This document shows positions 32,478-50,433 of a DNA stretch of 64,000 nucleotides, in pieces; position 1 is the stretch's first letter; every line of letters begins with the position of its first letter. The stretch lies in the NCBI GenBank assembly GCA_016840085.1, contig JAEOTA010000054.1:1-64000 (forward strand), in the 5' to 3' direction. The stretch is from Promethearchaeota archaeon. Its GTDB lineage: Archaea; Asgardarchaeota; Lokiarchaeia; Sigyniarchaeales; SOKP01. Below the pieces are notes generated by a model. It made no database searches, was not told the DNA's origin, and was given only the letters and a program-made list of their open reading frames with translations. The position numbers and the translations under genes are program-made.

Positions 32478-34377
32478 TTAATAAAGATCCTTTATAACGA
32501 AATCTAAATTGAGATCTATTAAAGTTTCTTTTAGTGGATATCCATTTTCAGGATTCCAACCTATTTTTTCACAGTAGCCTTTATAATCTGCTAAATAATC
32601 GATCCCTACTGCTCTTTCCGGTAATTTATTATTAATAATATCAATACCCTCCCTTAAGGTGAATGCTTGTCTAAGGGTTTGAATTCTTATACCAATTTTA
32701 ATTAATTCATCGATAGTAAGATTCCAGCCAACTACTGCTTTAATTAATTCTACGAGGGGATGCTTTTGATATATACTAACAAATTGACATAAGCCAAGGC
32801 TGTTTAAACTTTGCCAAATTCCCACTATTAACTTTTCTGCTTCATTTCTATCATCACCGGGTTTTTTGAATTCTGTAGGCAATGAAAACCCATTCAATAA
32901 TCCATTGGGCTGTCCTAATCGTCCAGAAGCACTAAAATCTAATGTTGGTGTAGTATGTCTTCCTGGTGTTGGATCAAATGCGTAAGTTGCACCCATACTC
33001 CTATAGAGTTTTGAAGAATGCATACCAAGTTCTTGACCCAATGAATGAATCGCATACACATCACTGCCTTTTCCAATTTTTTCTGAAGCGATTTTTGATC
33101 CATCTGCTAAAATGTTTCCAAAACCTTCTCGTTTAATCACTTTTTTTCACTAATTCAATTATAGCTGATGAATTTCCCCACCTTAACTCAAGCCCATCAG
33201 TATCATCTTTGTTTATAATACCATTTTCATAACACTCTATTGCAAAAGCAACAGTAGCACCGAGAGATATGGTATCTATTCCTGCTCGATTACATAAGTC
33301 ATTAATAATAAATATAGACATTAAGTCATCATTTAGCAACATTGGTCCAAATACAGAACATGTTTCGTATTCTGGGCGATGAGTATTTTTAATTCCTACT
33401 TCCGCCACATTCATAATAGCACCACATTGAACTGGGCATGCAAAACATCCATAAGCTTTCTGTTTATATTTATTTATTTCCATTCCTGAAATTTTATTTG
33501 CCATTACATCAGGAAAATCTACTTTTGAAGTCCCTCCCCAATTCTTTATTGGAGTATCTCCCATTTGGACCATAAGTGTATTACCAGCAGTAGTTCCTAA
33601 GTTTTTAAAAATAGAAATTAGAACACTAGTACTTTCATTTATAATTTTATTATATTCTTTTGTTAACCTATTTAATTCATCTCTATCCTCTACAGAGATT
33701 TTTTCATTCCCTTTAAGTACAATAGCCTTTAATTTTTTAGAACCCATAACAGCACCAAAACCGGATCTAGCAGCAATTCTAGCGTTATCATTTATAATAC
33801 CAGAGATAAGGGAAAGCTTTTCACCTGCTTGACCAATACTTGCTACTTGAACCTTTCCATATCTTTCAGTTAACTTATTTTCTGTTTGGACTACATCTAA
33901 GCCCCATAGGTCAGAAGCATCAATAATTTGCATGTCACCTTCAATAATGGCAATGCATTTAGGAACATTTGCTTTTCCTCTGATTAAAAGCGCATCAAAA
34001 CCTCATTTTTTAATTTCGGGTCCAAAAAATCCTCCACAGTTAGAATCTCCCCAAGTTCCTGTCAGAGGAGATTTTCCTGCTACCATAAATCGTCCAGTTA
34101 AGGGAGCAATAGTACCAGTTAATAACCCTGGAAAAAAACCAAAAATAGCTTCTTCTCCTAAAGGATCAATTCTTATTGGTAAATTATCATATAATAATTT
34201 AGCTGCTAAACCATAGCCACCCAAATACTGGCGATAGTATTCTTCAGGTAAAGTTTCTTCTCTAAAATTTTCTTCTGAAAGATCAATCCATAATATTTTT
34301 TCTAAATATCCATTTACTCCCAAAATATTCACTTTTAGATTGTTTAAATCATTTAAAGGTGAAGTTATATTAAACAT
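32478..34377 (-). pseudogene. aor: Aldehyde:ferredoxin oxidoreductase (W-pterin), disrupted by in-frame TGA (34003-34005) and a frameshift in an A7 run (~33141-33147)
   Basis: YLGGYGL, KSPLTG, GPEIKK*GFDA, GAVMGSKKLKA, CFACPVQC, RPEYET, GIDTIS spread over three track ORFs. Confidence 0.88.
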
Positions 34378-41408: not shown

Positions 41409-42521
41409 TTAATGTTGGGATAATAATTCAATTAAAGCTCTTGGAATTTCTCTATAGTCATTTACCGCATAAAATTTTCCTCTCCCTACTTTAGCAATTT
41501 CTCGGCATGTATTAATTCCTTGATTTGCATCATTCTCTGCAGGCATTCCTATAACATGAAGTTTAGGAAACTTTTTTGCAAGCTCAACGGGATTATCTCC
41601 TCTATTAAAATTTCCATCACTAATTAATATTCCAAATTTTTCTTTTACTGGTTGTCTAATTTTATTTAACTCTTTTAAACCCTTTTCTAATCCAAGATAA
41701 ATATTTGTAAAACCAACAGCTTCTGAATCTAATATATCATCTATAATAGTAATAATTTCTTTTTTTTGGTCAATTTTTTTTAGAGTCATGGCGGTTGAGT
41801 TAAATAGAATAATCGCAAAATCTTCTTTTTCCATATGATAGGCTAAAACAGAGGCAGTAAGAGCAGCATTTAATAGTAAACGCCCATACATACTACCGCT
41901 AGTGTCTAAAATCAACACAACTTTCCTTTTTTGACGCTTTCTTACAATTCCAAAAATGTCTTGGTAATTCAAACTTTTTTCATATATTTTTAAAGGATTA
42001 TGTTGGATTGTTTCATCAAGACTGAATTCAGGCATTCCAATCTGATAATTTGGGGTTGTTCTTTTAAATTGACCTCTTATTCCTCTACTGGTTATTTTCA
42101 ATGAGAGTTTTAAAATACTCTGCCTTGCTAATCGTCTAAAAATAGATTTATATTTTTCGGAGATGGGTCGTCTAATAAAAAAGTAAATTTCTGGCATAAA
42201 ATCTCCTGATTCTTTAGCTTTTTCAGAGAAAAACTTCACACCATCTTCAGTATCTAAAGCATCTGTTGCAGCATAGACATTAGCTTTAAGTAAACCCATT
42301 AAAGCTTCTAAATTTTTGTATTGGATTGCGAGATAGGTCATTTCTTTAATTTGTTTATAATCTAGTGTATTAGCAAGAGCCTTGTAATAATCAGGTTTTT
42401 TCTTTTTTTTTCTGATTATTTCAAACTTTAAAATTTCTTTATCTGGTCGACTTTCAGTAAGTCTAACATGCAGTCTTTTCTCAATCTCCTCAGATCCTTC
42501 CTCAGAGAAATCATCGACTAT
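41409..42521 (-). CDS. von Willebrand factor A domain protein (MoxR partner); reading frame open 60 codons upstream of the first Met
   Basis: MIDAS LDTSGSM, GFTN, ISDG; upstream in-frame IVDDFSEEGSEEIEKRLHV...KPDYYKALANTLDYKQIKE with no ATG/GTG/TTG. Confidence 0.85.
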   Translation of the reverse strand: MVDDFSEEGSEEIEKRLHVRLTESRPDKEILKFEIIRKKKKKPDYYKALANTLDYKQIKEMTYLAIQYKNLEALMGLLKANVYAATDALDTEDGVKFFSEKAKESGDFMPEIYFFIRRPISEKYKSIFRRLARQSILKLSLKITSRGIRGQFKRTTPNYQIGMPEFSLDETIQHNPLKIYEKSLNYQDIFGIVRKRQKRKVVLILDTSGSMYGRLLLNAALTASVLAYHMEKEDFAIILFNSTAMTLKKIDQKKEIITIIDDILDSEAVGFTNIYLGLEKGLKELNKIRQPVKEKFGILISDGNFNRGDNPVELAKKFPKLHVIGMPAENDANQGINTCREIAKVGRGKFYAVNDYREIPRALIELLSQH

Positions 42522-42530
42522 TGAAAATCC
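42481..42530 (-). other. Candidate -1 ribosomal frameshift signal (G_GAT_TTT, 6-nt spacer, hairpin)
   Basis: ACG GAT TTT CAA TAG at the end of MoxR; vWA ORF is in the -1 frame; stem UCGAU(GA)UUUCUC / GAGGAGAUUGA found by eye. Confidence 0.45.
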
Positions 42531-43390
42531 GTTTTATTTAGAACAGCTAAAACAATATTGGTGATTATTTCTTTCTTAGATTGAGTTAATCCGTCTTCTA
42601 GCTCTATTTTATTATATAATGCCATTACTGCAACTTCTACCCAGTTTTTCGTACTCCTACTATTTCCATATTGATCTATTAAAGTAGCTAAATCTATACC
42701 ACCTCTAATGGAACTTCCTCTGCGAATTGATGTGCTATCTCTCGTTGCTTGTATAACCAATTGAGAAATTGTAGAAATTCTATCAGAATTTATGTTAGCT
42801 TCTTGTTTGATGATTGAGATTTCTTCTTCTGGAGTTTGGTATTCTAAATTAATCCAAATAAATCTATCTTTTAATGCTTCACCTAAGACGGTAACACCTA
42901 CATGAGCTGCTGGATTTTGAGTTGCGATTACAAAAAAATCATTATGAGCTTTTATCGTCTCTAATTTTGGAATTTCAAGTATTCCTTCATCAAGAGCAGT
43001 TAATAATGAGTTTTGAGTGTTTTCAGGCATTCTATTTATTTCATTTATAAATAAACATCCTCCATTCAACATAGCTAAGGCTAAGGGACCATATTTATAA
43101 GAATCTTCATTATAACCTTTCGCAATTACAAGAGGTGGTTCAAAATAACCAACAAGGTTGTGCGGCAGTAATTCTTCACTACAATCAACTCTAAAAAAAT
43201 TAAAGTTATTAGAACCGTAATATTCAGCAATAGCTTTAGCTAATATAGTTTTCCCAACACCCACATTACCTTCTAATAATATATTTTTACCTACTGAATG
43301 AGCCAATGCAATTTGTTTTAATTCTTCTGTTCTACCAATTATTTTAAATTTCTCTTGTATTTCACTTACTAGACTGGTCATATCAACCAT
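42518..43390 (-). CDS. MoxR family AAA+ ATPase
   Basis: Walker A GNVGVGKT, Walker B LFINEINR, ATQNP, LGEALKDRF, SSIRG. Confidence 0.92.
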   Translation of the reverse strand: MVDMTSLVSEIQEKFKIIGRTEELKQIALAHSVGKNILLEGNVGVGKTILAKAIAEYYGSNNFNFFRVDCSEELLPHNLVGYFEPPLVIAKGYNEDSYKYGPLALAMLNGGCLFINEINRMPENTQNSLLTALDEGILEIPKLETIKAHNDFFVIATQNPAAHVGVTVLGEALKDRFIWINLEYQTPEEEISIIKQEANINSDRISTISQLVIQATRDSTSIRRGSSIRGGIDLATLIDQYGNSRSTKNWVEVAVMALYNKIELEDGLTQSKKEIITNIVLAVLNKTDFQ

Positions 43391-45237: not shown

Positions 45238-46488
45238 TTACTCGGGGTGAAGTTTTACTAGAACAAAATCTCCTTTTTTCAAACCTTCTTGATGTGGAAG
45301 AATCTCAATTATGCCATCTGAAGAAGTAAGAGAACTAATTACACCAGATCCTTTTAATTTTACCGGGACAGCTAAAAATATATTTTCCTTTTTTTCAACT
45401 TTCACTCGTAAATAATGGAGAAATCCAAGACCAGAAACAGGAACATCACTTTTAATTGTTGCGAGTATCTCTACTCTTGGATCTAATACAGAACATCCAA
45501 GTATTTTCCTGATTGCCGGTCCAGTAATTTTTAAGAAAGAGACATATGCTGCAACTGGAGTTCCTGGTAAACAAAATATTAAGACATTCTCTACAAATCC
45601 AATTAAAACTGGAGCTCCAGGTCTCATAGCAATCCCATGGGTTAAAACCATACCTGATTCATTAATAATCTCGGGAAGATAATCTTTAGTACCAACTGAA
45701 GTGCCACCAGTAAAAATTATAACTTGAGAATTTCCAGCGGCTTCAAGCAATCTATTTTTGATAGCATCTTTATCATCTTTTACCGTTTCACCTCTAATAA
45801 CTGTTCCACCATACAAATTTACTAATGCGGATATCATAGGAGTGTTTGAATTATAAATTCTTCCCGGTTGAAGTGCCTCACCGGGTTCAAGTAATTCATC
45901 TCCAGAAGAAAAAATACTTATTTTTGGCTTAGTTCGCACTTCTATTTTATTAAACCCTAATGATGCCAAAAGTGCAATATGTTCAGCTTTTAAATCTGTG
46001 CCCTTGCTTAAAACGGGGGTGCCTTTCTTAATATCTTCTCCTTTCTTTGAAATATTTTTTCCAGGCGGTAGAGAAACATAAATATTTATGGATTTTTCTT
46101 TAATTTCAGAGTCTTCAATCTTTATAACGGCATCTGCACCTTCTGGTATCGGTGCTCCAGTAGAAATCTTAATTCCCTCACCTTTATTAAGCTTGAGGTT
46201 AGAAGATTCACCGATTTCAATTGTTCCCACAAGTTTAATCTTTTTTGGGGTTTTAGGAGATGCATTAAACGAATCTTCAGCTTTAATAGCAAAACCATCC
46301 ATAGCTGACCGATCAAAAGGAGGAAGATCTATATCACAAACTATATCACAAGCTAAAACACGATTTATAGATTTTCTTACATCAATTTCTTCAATTGGAT
46401 TTAGCGGGATTTGTGAAAATAACTTTTCTAAAGCATCTTCTAAAGATGTTAACTTTGAAAATCCTATCTTTCTTAATTTATTAACCAT
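45238..46488 (-). CDS. moeA: Molybdopterin molybdo/tungstotransferase MoeA
   Basis: PPFDRSAMDGFA, STGAPIP, SSGDEL, GGTSVG, PGTP. Confidence 0.95.
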   Translation of the reverse strand: MVNKLRKIGFSKLTSLEDALEKLFSQIPLNPIEEIDVRKSINRVLACDIVCDIDLPPFDRSAMDGFAIKAEDSFNASPKTPKKIKLVGTIEIGESSNLKLNKGEGIKISTGAPIPEGADAVIKIEDSEIKEKSINIYVSLPPGKNISKKGEDIKKGTPVLSKGTDLKAEHIALLASLGFNKIEVRTKPKISIFSSGDELLEPGEALQPGRIYNSNTPMISALVNLYGGTVIRGETVKDDKDAIKNRLLEAAGNSQVIIFTGGTSVGTKDYLPEIINESGMVLTHGIAMRPGAPVLIGFVENVLIFCLPGTPVAAYVSFLKITGPAIRKILGCSVLDPRVEILATIKSDVPVSGLGFLHYLRVKVEKKENIFLAVPVKLKGSGVISSLTSSDGIIEILPHQEGLKKGDFVLVKLHPE

Positions 46489-46490
46489 AA

Positions 46491-47027
46491 TTATTCCTTT
46501 TTGTTTATCATGTATACAACATGTCTTAACTCTGGAATTAGCAACTCTTTAAAGGCGAGCTCTACTGCCTTAGGGGAACCAGGAAGCAAAAATATGGCTT
46601 TATCTTTAATTCTACCTCCAGTTGCTCTTGATAACATCGCAGCAGAACCAATTTCTTTATATGATAAATATCTAAAAAGTTCTCCAAATCCAGTAATTTC
46701 CTTATCTAATAGTGGTTTAATAGTTTCATAAGTAATATCTTTAGGTGTTAAGCCAGTACCACCACTAAATATTATGGAATGAATAGATTTATCTACTAAA
46801 AACGTATTTAAAATGTCTGTAATCTTTTCTTTATTATCAGGTACGATTTTAGTAGCATTTAATGAAATTTTCTCATGTTCTATTAGAATTTCTCTTATTA
46901 AGGGAATTGTTTTATCTGAGCTTTCTTTCTTTTCTTGTAATTCATTAAATCGAGTGGTACTGACAATAATTAAGGCTATATTAACAACTTCTGGACCTTT
47001 TTTCTTATGTTCTTCATGAACTTTCAT
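46491..47027 (-). CDS. moaB: MoaB/MogA molybdopterin adenylyltransferase
   Basis: GGTGLTPKDITYE, GFGELFR, LSRA, LPGSPKAV. Confidence 0.93.
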   Translation of the reverse strand: MKVHEEHKKKGPEVVNIALIIVSTTRFNELQEKKESSDKTIPLIREILIEHEKISLNATKIVPDNKEKITDILNTFLVDKSIHSIIFSGGTGLTPKDITYETIKPLLDKEITGFGELFRYLSYKEIGSAAMLSRATGGRIKDKAIFLLPGSPKAVELAFKELLIPELRHVVYMINKKE

Positions 47028-48253
47028 TAAAAGAAATACACCTTTCTTTTATCTCCTTTGTCTATTATTGATTCCAACTCTTCAATTTCAATGTATCCAT
47101 CTGCATAGAACATCGTACTAATTGCTTCTGAACCTGTTTTAATTGGAAATATTTTCTTAATTCCCTTTTCTTCCTTGATTTTAACAGCTTTGAATTCATG
47201 TCTACCGACAGTGCTATATATTCTTTCACCAATTTCAAATTCCTTTGAAAATTTATCTCTTAAAGGATAGCCAGACATTTTTCTCAGAAAATTATCAATA
47301 AATACATAGAAACAACTCAATGCAGACGTTGGATATCCTGGTAAAATAAAAATTATTTTTTTCTTCACTTTAGCAAAAATTATTGGTTTTCCTGGTTTAA
47401 TTTTTACGCCATGGATTAGAATTTCAATATCATTATAACCTTCTAAAACTTTAGGTCCTAAATCTCCTTCTCCTTTAGATGTCCCTCCAGATAAAATTAC
47501 AATATCGCTGTTTTCTAAAGCTTTTTCTATACCATTTTTCAATTCGTCATAATTATCCTTTATAACACCTAAGAATTTAACTAGAACACCTGTATTTTCA
47601 ATAGCTTTTCTTAACACAACCGAATTTACATCATAAATCTTTCCAATTTCTAAGTTCTTCACTTCTTGGCTTACAAGTTCATTTCCGGTACTCATTAGAG
47701 AAACAGTTGGTTGTGTGTATACCCAGACTCCCTTGATTCCACATGATGCGAAGATCCCCATAGTTGCTAAATCAATTAAAGTGTCTTTTTTAAGTATTGT
47801 ACTACCTTTTTTTACATCATGTCCAATCTCGATAACATAAGTTCCAGGAGTAATAGCTTTAGAAATTGATACCTTATTTTCCTGCCTTTCAGAGAATTCA
47901 ACCATTACCACACCATCTGCGTTTCCTGGCACGGCAGCTCCAGTTGCTACATAAGAACATTGTCCTTTCTTTAACCTTTTTTGAGGAATATCTCCAGCTT
48001 GAATTGCCTCTATTATTTCAAGTTCTATTAAGTTATCTTCTTCTGCACCAAAAGTATCTTCTGCTAGTACAGCATATCCATCCATTCTTGATTTTCTAAA
48101 GTGAGGAACATCTATTTTGCTTTCAATATCACGTGAAAGAATTCTATTAAAACTTTCTCCGATACTAACTATTTCTTCTTCAACTTTTAATCTTGGAATT
48201 GAATCAAGAATAATCTTAAATTCATCTACGCTAATTGTTTTTAAAAATTTCAT
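47027..48253 (-). CDS. moeA: MoeA paralog
   Basis: SRMDGYA, ATGA, STGNEL, SGGTSKG, IKPGKP, LPGYPTS. Confidence 0.93.
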   Translation of the reverse strand: MKFLKTISVDEFKIILDSIPRLKVEEEIVSIGESFNRILSRDIESKIDVPHFRKSRMDGYAVLAEDTFGAEEDNLIELEIIEAIQAGDIPQKRLKKGQCSYVATGAAVPGNADGVVMVEFSERQENKVSISKAITPGTYVIEIGHDVKKGSTILKKDTLIDLATMGIFASCGIKGVWVYTQPTVSLMSTGNELVSQEVKNLEIGKIYDVNSVVLRKAIENTGVLVKFLGVIKDNYDELKNGIEKALENSDIVILSGGTSKGEGDLGPKVLEGYNDIEILIHGVKIKPGKPIIFAKVKKKIIFILPGYPTSALSCFYVFIDNFLRKMSGYPLRDKFSKEFEIGERIYSTVGRHEFKAVKIKEEKGIKKIFPIKTGSEAISTMFYADGYIEIEELESIIDKGDKRKVYFF

Positions 48254-48316
48254 GAGTAAATTAAAATTCTCTTAAATTTTATTTAAAACGTTATGATTAT
48301 TAATTTTAAATCGATT

Positions 48317-48766
48317 TTAATGGATCCATTCAGTTGATCCATCATTAAAATCTTCTCTCTTCCATACGGCTATTTCATTTTTATACATTTCAACTGCTTT
48401 ACTAATTACATCAAATCCTTCTTTTCTATGAGCTGAAATCACTACTACATATACTAAATCTTCAGAAAGTTCAAAACTACCTCTTAAATGAACGATCTTA
48501 ACATCAATAATTCCTTGTTCTTGTTTTAGTTCTTCGCATATTTTATTAATACTTTTATTTGCCAATTCATCATAAGCATCGATTTTCATACTAATTACAG
48601 GTTTCCCATTTTTCGAGGTTCCTCTGACTATACCTGTAAATGTATGAATAGATCCAGCTTCTTGGATATGAGGATTATTTTTTATTGATTTGATTATTGT
48701 CTCTAAATTAATTTCCCCTTTATTATAAATTCCTGAATCCATTTTTAAGTCTTTATCATCATCCAT
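48317..48766 (-). CDS. moaE: Molybdopterin synthase catalytic subunit
   Basis: GSIHTFTGIVR, SAHRKEGF, VWKRE, WIH. Confidence 0.92.
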   Translation of the reverse strand: MDDDKDLKMDSGIYNKGEINLETIIKSIKNNPHIQEAGSIHTFTGIVRGTSKNGKPVISMKIDAYDELANKSINKICEELKQEQGIIDVKIVHLRGSFELSEDLVYVVVISAHRKEGFDVISKAVEMYKNEIAVWKREDFNDGSTEWIH

Positions 48767-48772
48767 GTCATC

Positions 48773-49054
48773 TCAACCCCCTGAAACTGGTAATAAAAAC
48801 GCGATTATATCCCCCTCATTTAATTGTTTCGATAAAATATTATCTCCATGGAAAGGTTGGTTATTTATTATTACAGAAATAAAATTACTCAACTTTTGGA
48901 GCTTATCATCCCATAGTAACTTGCGAAGACTATGATATTTTTTTAATAATAAATCTATTAAATCATTTAAACTCTGATTTGATAATTCTAATTCTTCCTT
49001 TTCTTTACCTGTGATATCTTTAAATTCTGCAAAATATAGAACTTCTACAATCAT
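48773..49054 (-). CDS. moaD: Molybdopterin synthase sulfur carrier (MoaD/SAMP)
   Basis: YFAEFKDITGK...GDIIAFLLPVSGG with C-terminal GG. Confidence 0.92.
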   Translation of the reverse strand: MIVEVLYFAEFKDITGKEKEELELSNQSLNDLIDLLLKKYHSLRKLLWDDKLQKLSNFISVIINNQPFHGDNILSKQLNEGDIIAFLLPVSGG

Positions 49055-49070
49055 TTAATAAAACCAATTT

Positions 49071-49991
49071 TTAAAAATAGGGTTCTCTTGAATCTACGAC
49101 TTGTTTAACAATTTGCTCATATTTCTCTAAAGAATAATGATTTTTTAGAGCCTGTTTTAAATTTTTTCCCAAATCTGAACGGTAAAGGCATCCAAAAAGG
49201 TTTCCATCACACCCAACCCGAAGTTTAGTACACCCCATACAAAATTCATGACTAGGTGTAATTGTTTCTATAATCGCGGAATTTGGTAATATGAATACTT
49301 TTCGATTTTGCATGGAACCTCTAACTAATATTTTTTCTGCTTTTGATTCAAGTTCTTCGATAATAGGCTTAACATCTAAATGGTAATTATCATAAAAATC
49401 CCCATTTCCTCCTATTACCTCAGAAACTTGGTGTAATTCGATTAATTGTAAAACAAAACCATTTTTTGCACAAAAATCAATCATATCTTCCAATTCATTA
49501 TCGTTAATTCCTTTCATTAAGACAAAATTTAACTTTATAGGATTAAATCCGAGTTGGTTTGCTTTCTGTAAGCCTTCTAAAACTTTATCCAAGGAATCTG
49601 ATCCATAGATCTTTTTATATATCTCTGGTTTAAGTGAGCCTAATGAAACATTTATTCGATTTAAACCAGCGTTATACAATTCCTCGGCTTTATCATACAA
49701 GAGAGCCCCATTAGTAGTCATAGAAATATCCTTATAGAGATGTAAATCAGAAACATTTTTTATAATCTTTACAATTTCATTTCGACATAAAGGCTCTCCA
49801 CCTGTAAATTTAATTCTAGTAACGTTTAGGATTTCAGCTAATATTTTGCATAATTTTGTGATTTCTTCTAGAGCCAGCTCAGAAGTTTTTGGTATAAAAC
49901 CCTCTTTATCACAATAAACACAATTATAATTACATTTTGATGTAATTGAAAATCTGATATGTTTGATTTCTCGATTACAATTATCTTTCAT
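49071..49991 (-). CDS. moaA: GTP 3',8-cyclase MoaA
   Basis: CNYNCVYC, TGGEP, FCMGCTKLR...CL. Confidence 0.93.
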   Translation of the reverse strand: MKDNCNREIKHIRFSITSKCNYNCVYCDKEGFIPKTSELALEEITKLCKILAEILNVTRIKFTGGEPLCRNEIVKIIKNVSDLHLYKDISMTTNGALLYDKAEELYNAGLNRINVSLGSLKPEIYKKIYGSDSLDKVLEGLQKANQLGFNPIKLNFVLMKGINDNELEDMIDFCAKNGFVLQLIELHQVSEVIGGNGDFYDNYHLDVKPIIEELESKAEKILVRGSMQNRKVFILPNSAIIETITPSHEFCMGCTKLRVGCDGNLFGCLYRSDLGKNLKQALKNHYSLEKYEQIVKQVVDSREPYF

Positions 49992-50001
49992 TTTATAAAA
50001 T

Positions 50002-50433
50002 CTAAGGTTTTTTAATTTTCTCCTCTACTTTAATATCATAAATTAATGTGTCAGGATATTGTCCCTCATTATTTTTCTCATACATTTTGACAACATCCCA
50101 TATATTTAAGAGTGCTATATTTACTCCTGTTAAAGCCTCCATTTCAACACCTGTTTTTGCGATACTTTTTACTGTGCATGTGACTTTTATAATTGTACCA
50201 TTTTCAAATTCAAAATTTACATCAACATTGGTAATAGGAATCGGGTGGCAAAATGGAATTATATCTGGAACTTTTTTTACTGCATTTATAGCAGCTATTT
50301 TAGCTATGGTAAGTACATCTCCTTTCTTAACTTGATTATTCTTAATTCTCGTGATGGTCTTATCTTTAAGTTTAATTCTTCCAGATGCCGTTGCAATCCT
50401 TAGAATTGTATTTTTTTCAGAAATATCAATCAT
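50002..50433 (-). CDS. moaC: Cyclic pyranopterin monophosphate synthase MoaC
   Basis: MIDISEK, KKGDVL, IPFCHP, TGVEMEAL, IWDVVK. Confidence 0.95.
   Translation of the reverse strand: MIDISEKNTILRIATASGRIKLKDKTITRIKNNQVKKGDVLTIAKIAAINAVKKVPDIIPFCHPIPITNVDVNFEFENGTIIKVTCTVKSIAKTGVEMEALTGVNIALLNIWDVVKMYEKNNEGQYPDTLIYDIKVEEKIKKP

Follow-up and report, generated by a model that had tools for sequence, protein, structure and literature searches.

Two adjacent open reading frames (ORFs) on the minus strand of an Asgard archaeal contig, one for a MoxR-family AAA+ ATPase and one ending in a vWA domain, are most likely a single recoded gene, in which tandem −1 slippage on the Asp and Phe codons before the ATPase stop, aided by a hairpin on the 3′ side, would join the two frames. 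This reading rests on comparing orthologous loci, and the same comparison indicates that one gene very probably gives rise to a short ATPase and a longer AAA-vWA protein in Asgard archaea and Korarchaeota. The window, by which we mean the entire 64,000-nt stretch of DNA analyzed, is grouped by its relatives with the Lokiarchaeia/Promethearchaeota.

The ATPase ORF (42518..43390, minus strand; Pfam AAA_5, E 4e-20; AAA_3, E 2e-19) encodes a 290-aa product in the zero frame and closes with ACG GAT TTT CAA TAG (minus strand, 42532–42518). Its Walker A motif occupies residues 41–48 and its Walker B variant, FINE, residues 114–117; the NE in place of DE (43040–43051, minus strand) is invariant family-wide. 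The vWA frame lies at −1 relative to this ORF, is open from 42533, after a TAA, and contains no ATG, GTG, or TTG before 42341, which is 61 codons past the slip point. The putative slippery heptamer G_GAU_UUU (42524..42530, minus strand) would place Asp GAU in the P site and Phe UUU in the A site, and is followed by a 6-nt spacer, CAA UAG, read from the sequence as the last sense codon and the ATPase stop (42518..42523, minus strand). From the slip point onward, the −1 frame (41409..42524, minus strand) encodes an acidic linker, a helical domain, and a vWA domain (VWA, E 2e-9), together 371 aa that would form the C-terminal part of a 660-aa fusion (289+371, with the slip on G_GAU_UUU). The MIDAS motif DTSGS lies at 41892..41906 (minus strand), and its D, S, S, T, and D do not vary in alignment A3; inspection of the sequence finds Walker A, the Walker B variant, and MIDAS all intact in the window. 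The predicted junction is ...NKTDF/SIVDDF..., with the tryptic peptide TDFSIVDDFSEEGSEEIEK; the corresponding predictions are ...AVLENF/SVEAEDPEQSPSK for Ca. Lokiarchaeum ossiferum (UYP46123.1, locus L112) and ...EIFENF/SITAENTESLEPDEAK for P. syntrophicum (QEE14636.1, L116). A preliminary description of this DNA had reported the same ATPase end, the −1 phase opening after the TAA, about 60 start-less codons, the in-phase heptamer at 42530–42524 with a 6-nt spacer before 42517, and inferred products of 290 and about 660 aa. Rereading the sequence and recounting agree with it on each point, and the two-product reading is supported by comparison, without experiment.

To place the junction in context, we gathered orthologous loci from genus to phylum level. 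As had been anticipated for a recoded gene, the −1 phase is conserved: among the 158 distinct loci, the vWA frame sits at −1 in 145 and at +1 in nine, and the remaining four are in-frame fusions. The Asgard −1 loci span 45–100% identity, and Korarchaeota also have the −1 phase; because the loci are kin, the counts overstate their independence, and the pattern recurs in about 20 families. Over the 50 codons past the ATPase stop, the −1 frame of the 145 −1 loci is free of stops, whereas the other two frames contain 432 and 956; changes within the stretch that has no start are concentrated at third codon positions (593 versus 234 and 171). The downstream frame is coding from the slip site on, and the expected absence of a conserved start holds throughout the −1 loci, where the median position of the first ordinary start is +89 nt and only 12/145 have one within 15 nt; the window's own vWA ATG is Met in 8/43 close relatives. 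The query found no match in the 76 genomes of one Asgard family (f12), and none in families f8, f18, and f22. An assembly error or a pseudogene in the window genome might be suspected in a metagenome assembly with 7.6% contamination, but conservation of the junction across loci refutes it: the indel that would have to be invoked is shared by 145 distinct loci, including the closed genomes of the cultured species P. syntrophicum and Ca. L. ossiferum, and the catalytic motifs are intact. We regard the chance of such an error as negligible.

A separate vWA protein could instead arise if terminating ribosomes re-initiated at a non-AUG codon overlapping the ATPase stop (here ATA, in an ATGA-like geometry), with the hairpin controlling the coupling. 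Initiation at this ATA was the alternative named in the preliminary description. The −4 overlap is the usual geometry for such coupling, MoxR and vWA proteins usually occur unfused, as they do in a paralogous pair discussed below, and among the 145 −1 loci the overlapping codon is ATA in 87 and TTG, GTG, or ATG in 9. Because ATA is found in only those 87, however, the proposal fails: the codon is TTA in 21 loci, GTA in 14, and CTA in 13, 48 loci in which it varies as an internal hydrophobic residue would. Re-initiation also leaves unexplained the frozen U_UUU and the covariation of the 5′ base upstream of the stop, both described next, and we consider it very unlikely.

In the −1 loci, NNU_UUY stands 0–2 codons upstream of the ATPase stop, and the stop falls 0–1 codon past the A-site Phe in 137/145. 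The terminal Phe is UUU in 141/143 −1 loci (background about 65%), and the codon before it ends in U in all 143 (background about 75%); at other conserved columns, Phe is 57–88% UUU, and Asp, Asn, and His codons end in U in 67–89%. The counts for the two junction codons come from an unbiased tally; a separate motif table is circular for U_UUU. Both UUC exceptions (L131 and L157, A_AAU_UUC) still fit the heptamer, and L125 lacks U_UUU but has A_AAC_CCU, likewise a perfect heptamer. In 115/141 loci the P codon is preceded by the same base with which it begins, with G alongside GAU and GGU, A alongside AAU, and C alongside CGU, CAU, and CCU. This covariation matches what tandem slippage predicts. 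In family f1, GAT and TTT are each present in 100% of sequences, the third base preceding the P codon is only G or A, and the Ser codon before the P codon is TCG in 40 cases and TCA in 11, never TCT or TCC, against a background of 9.8% for G. The preliminary description had singled out GGATTTT/C for a test of conservation; the U_UUU core passes it, being invariant and under synonymous selection, whereas GGAUUUU itself is not invariant and the P site is flexible (GGA, AGA, AAA, CCG, GGG, CCA). P-site re-pairing is imperfect for GGA and AGA, a point against slippage; G_GA is nevertheless an accepted X_XX variant. The site is, overall, a phased slippery heptamer under synonymous selection.

Two variants of the site deserve description. 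In L067, L094, L103, L106, L107, L109, L121, and L128, the sense codon that follows the heptamer elsewhere is replaced by a stop (TTT TAA TAA or TAG) with the −1 frame still open, from which we infer that the last ATPase residue is dispensable. A-run sites occur only in three distant metagenome loci, L257, L269, and L276, where the same gene pair in −1 phase carries A_AAA_AAA/G sites that are chlD- and dnaX-like.

Transcriptional slippage, in which a fraction of the mRNA gains one U at the T-run and the fusion is made by ordinary translation, would draw on the runs of T5–T7 or A7–A9 found in some lineages, and the chelatase sites become more efficient as their A-runs lengthen (PMC3711429). Only T4, though, is present in the window and most loci, far shorter than the published runs of T>8 or A>7, and a P-site covariation phased to codons, with a 3′ hairpin at ribosome spacing, fits translation. 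We give this mechanism scarcely any weight.

The candidate 3′ stimulator in the window is a hairpin with a kink-turn (k-turn) at its base (42479..42517, minus strand), whose motif columns show no variation across 64 sequences, with synonymous positions frozen. The plain hairpin proposed earlier, at 42517–42481, is at −8.4 kcal/mol (z 0.09) no better than shuffles when folded alone, and one pair of its lower stem is broken in 5/64 relatives. An alternative k-turn pairing, 42517–42479, accommodates those five rows and fits better. It would comprise, in order, two C-stem pairs (42517-16/42480-79), a GAU bulge (42515-13), tandem G.A/A.G pairs (42512-11 with 42482-81), a U.U pair, and an NC stem (42508-04/42489-85) topped by an inner hairpin that varies, all on the minus strand. 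RNAalifold on alignment A1 returned invariant pairs only. The stem covariation that had been looked for does exist, in the inner stem within f1 and in the k-turn stems in other families, but the k-turn of f1 itself is supported by invariance alone. A loose version of the k-turn pattern appears in 47/79 synonymous shuffles of f1, produced by the acidic codons; the first pattern test was too loose for this family and was replaced by bulge-size and sequence-anchored tests. A k-turn in the window is accordingly not demonstrated but plausible, and we lean modestly toward it on the strength of invariance rather than covariation. Scans for Rfam families, promoters, and terminators returned nothing above chance.

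Outside f1 the k-turn geometry is shown by comparing sequences. Across loci, the mean folding z is −0.77 at +9, compared with about 0 in most other folding windows, placing a stimulator 5–9 nt downstream of the slippery site across loci, albeit weakly in the window alone. Folding locus by locus yields a recurring hairpin in which GA precedes the stem and loop, and the complementary strand is followed by a 3-nt bulge and a second GA; this GA/3-nt bulge/GA pattern is the k-turn consensus (PMC6298567). Among 62 non-f1 loci, a 3-nt bulge fits 22 and other sizes 1–6, where synonymous shuffles give 3.6 for the 3-nt bulge, with a maximum of 8. With anchors defined by sequence only, the standard bulge and tandem G.A/A.G pairs are found in 55/83 distinct non-f1 loci, and they are invariant in f1. 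The first four C-stem pairs are formed in 201/220 cells by G-C, A-U, U-A, and C-G types. The C helix covaries strongly outside f1 and consists of two invariant pairs in f1; outside f1 the NC helix covaries in part, and its pairing is incomplete, more so than that of the C-stem. The first GA lies 11 nt (or 14 or 17) past the start of the A site. In Korarchaeota the stop is 5–9 codons further down, reaching to or into the hairpin, and the offset from the slippery site is still 11; that the hairpin tracks the slippery site and not the stop also speaks against re-initiation. The putative f1 k-turn is of opposite polarity to that in other families, a polarity shared by half of the k-turns in l7ae leaders (PMC6298567).

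What the hairpin does is less certain than the −1 shift. The shift may be real and the 3′ element no more than a plain hairpin, or conservation of the acidic linker, with no L7Ae involved and a fixed product ratio. GA-rich Asp and Glu codons mimic the k-turn motif, in many loci the C-stem would by itself suffice as a hairpin, and several lineages keep the slippery site without a k-turn: Heimdallarchaeum (f10), which has little structure, and f27 (L140, L146, L150, L154, L163, L166, L185, and L189), where C_CGU_UUU is followed by a plain, GC-rich hairpin of 7–9 bp. Since f10 and f27 do so, a k-turn is not required everywhere. Against the plain element are the specific 3-nt size of the bulge, its identity as GAU in 48/55 loci, the C:G at −1b:−1n in 47/55, as in most natural k-turns (PMC6298567), and the frozen synonymous positions within the motif. 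We place this variant, which concerns the stimulator only, just short of an even chance. The fuller proposal is that Asgard archaea and Korarchaeota share an ancient recoding system, with the −1 rate set by L7Ae bound to a k-turn just 3′ of the slippery site; we consider it somewhat less likely than not. Two L7Ae-family genes are present in the genome. Because the stimulator looks like a k-turn, the fixed ratio of products assumed in the preliminary description is not assured.

In-frame fusions of the two halves, which the preliminary description had suggested looking for, are found in nature. Of 52 proteins returned by a search for longer homologs, 51 are close AAA-vWA fusions, about 590–720 aa long, named from Njordarchaeales, Bathyarchaeia, Nitrososphaerales, and others. 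One natural fusion, P0042, aligns through the junction and is colinear with the window's −1 frame from residue 1, right after the ATPase, at 39% identity. The U-run or the Phe is missing at the junction of most fusions, and those outside Njordarchaeales are without the U-run, which implies that the protein has no need of the slippery motif. Seven Njordarchaeales fusions (f25: L138, L152, L159, L176, and L216–L218) still carry TTT TTT CGN where the junction used to be, and either of the other two frames would reach a stop in about 10 codons or fewer. By analogy with dnaX, they may yield a short ATPase through an out-of-frame shift.

The vWA frame is at +1 in f32 loci named Heimdallarchaeota (L148, L156, L169, L180, L182, L186, L187, and L190) and in L134, L244, L251, and L282. 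In the +1 loci the frame is open through an invariant TTT TTT CGN, conserved residues lie upstream of a nearby ATG, and that ATG is missing in L190. UUU_CGN +1 sites are known from viruses, and these loci resemble them, possibly reflecting a switch from −1 to +1 shifting. Lineages with the +1 or in-frame layout may have kept the U-run to go on making both products. Fused and +1 states are nested among −1 loci, which suggests, without proving, that −1 is ancestral within the Asgard part of the tree; the tree is a quick version, and its root is not established.

The same genome contains a second AAA/vWA pair (L201, G000:C85:42082-45526), with an 841-codon downstream frame that opens AAA lid-like. 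In this paralogous pair the phase is +1, −1, and 0 in 6, 5, and 3 loci, and starts lie near the stop. With a variable phase and near starts, it is an ordinary operon, and recoding was rejected for it.

The encoded protein combines a MoxR-type AAA+ module, with Walker A intact and the NE Walker B variant, and an adjacent vWA partner bearing a MIDAS. A structural model of P0042 (pLDDT 85.6) consists of an AAA module, a disordered linker (residues 288–311), a helical domain, and a vWA domain; its closest folds are NorQ/NorD and CbbQ (NorQ, TMt 0.84; NorD vWA, E 2e-9). Judged from this model, the protein is NorQ/CbbQ-like and not ChlD. Membership in the ChlD/cobaltochelatase families was considered and rejected, with 23–25 bits against cut-offs of 500–780 (TIGR02031, 22.9 of 499.6; TIGR02442, 24.8 of 779.5), and a PF01078 match covers only the P-loop stretch, residues 16–55. 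Midasin orthology was rejected as well: midasin is the top PDB sequence match only by a score summed over repeats, and single-domain scores are 60 bits for MoxR 2r44, 46 for NorQ, and 37, its best, for midasin.

On the minus strand of the window, a molybdopterin cluster is recognizable by translation at 45238–50433 (two moeA-like genes, moaB, moaE, moaD, moaA, and moaC), and in 36/80 f1 loci moeA is found no more than 3 kb from the ATPase. A link to molybdopterin genes was dropped, as it has no support outside f1, where neighboring genes are not conserved and fused relatives have other neighbors. A 124-aa ORF at 34003–34377 (minus strand) resembles the N-terminus alone of an aldehyde:ferredoxin oxidoreductase and may be split. 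No client protein is evident.

In the mechanism we propose, most ribosomes would halt at UAG 42520 and release the 290-aa MoxR-type (NorQ/CbbQ-like) ATPase. Some, reading G_GAU_UUU with their P and A sites occupied by tRNA-Asp and tRNA-Phe, respectively, would slip by −1 during a pause imposed by the 3′ hairpin, perhaps together with the adjacent stop, and make the 660-aa AAA-linker-helical-vWA protein. The slip itself, its efficiency, and the trans-frame protein are inferred. So are the kinked fold of the hairpin, which has k-turn geometry, and its possible clamping by L7Ae, for which there are no binding data. Both products would probably co-assemble into a ring with about one tethered MIDAS adaptor; this hetero-oligomer is inferred from the NorQ6-NorD1 stoichiometry, in which a NorQ hexamer carries one NorD (bioRxiv 10.1101/2022.11.16.516607), a ratio that a minority fusion product could supply. 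Frameshifting at about 15–20% would be consistent with a single adaptor in each hexamer. The assembled ring would then remodel a client that is likewise inferred and unidentified.

The nearest precedent for this arrangement is fs-chlD in cobalt-magnesium chelatase genes (Antonov et al. 2013, PMC3711429; Kuznetsov et al. 2022, PMC9227772), where one gene yields a short AAA+ protein and an AAA+-linker-vWA protein by a −1 shift, with an AT-rich site, a 3′ structure, two-gene annotation, and fused orthologs. The chlD parallel drawn in the preliminary description is apt for this split of AAA+, linker, and vWA but does not extend to the protein, which is no ChlI/ChlD/CobS-CobT and belongs to another ATPase family, or to the A_AAA_AAR site of fs-chlD; the present site is U-rich and next to the stop, with a k-turn-type stimulator and no chelatase context seen. 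NorQ/NorD and CbbQ/CbbO, of the MoxR CGN subfamily with a vWA adaptor, are alike in the folds of both domains, with MIDAS intact. Their NorD/CbbO adaptor is a separate gene product, whereas here it would be tethered to the ATPase subunit by recoding, and identity is about 20%. Midasin/Rea1, with its AAA ring, acidic linker, and one MIDAS domain, offers an architectural analogy without evidence of orthology.

For the RNA signals, a viral −1 site known to work, that of the umbravirus PEMV2 and of dianthoviruses, combines the identical heptamer, G_GAU_UUU, with a stop one codon downstream and a 3′ structure (PMC5009743). The present site differs in belonging to a cellular archaeal gene and in a P-site triplet that varies among lineages; long-range pairing was not sought. 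L7Ae-bound k-turns in archaeal mRNAs (Daume 2017, PMC5539422; Huang 2019, PMC6298567) share the GAU-bulge hairpin and tandem G.A pairs, in either polarity. Those known repress initiation, however, and none was found as a frameshift stimulator; nor did our literature search, whose coverage is incomplete, find a paper on a k-turn in that role. In a 2021 review, only fucA1 of Saccharolobus counts as a demonstrated archaeal −1 frameshift, alongside suggested chelatase and viral cases (PMC8211752). fucA1 is likewise archaeal and cellular, with a heptamer and a stem-loop, but it is strain-restricted and encodes an unrelated protein, while the present site is kept across the phylum and beyond. We found no paper on the present locus in a search that covered subscription journals thinly, and overlap with the 2020 list of genomes with chlD frameshifts is not excluded.

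Taken together, the locus is a phylum-wide candidate for −1 frameshifting in the closest prokaryotic relatives of eukaryotes, with the site carried by two cultured species. The vWA halves of the gene carry arbitrary, mis-annotated starts in all these genomes. The finding would carry over to a second AAA+ family the chlD strategy of obtaining an ATPase and an ATPase-adaptor from a single gene, and it suggests recoding as a means of setting the stoichiometry of a ring. To our knowledge, protein-stimulated frameshifting has so far been known only from viruses. If the k-turn stimulator is real, it would be a new class of frameshift signal, tied to a ribosomal protein; if L7Ae acts through it, this would be a cellular case of protein-stimulated frameshifting, in which free L7Ae controls the number of vWA adaptors per MoxR ring.
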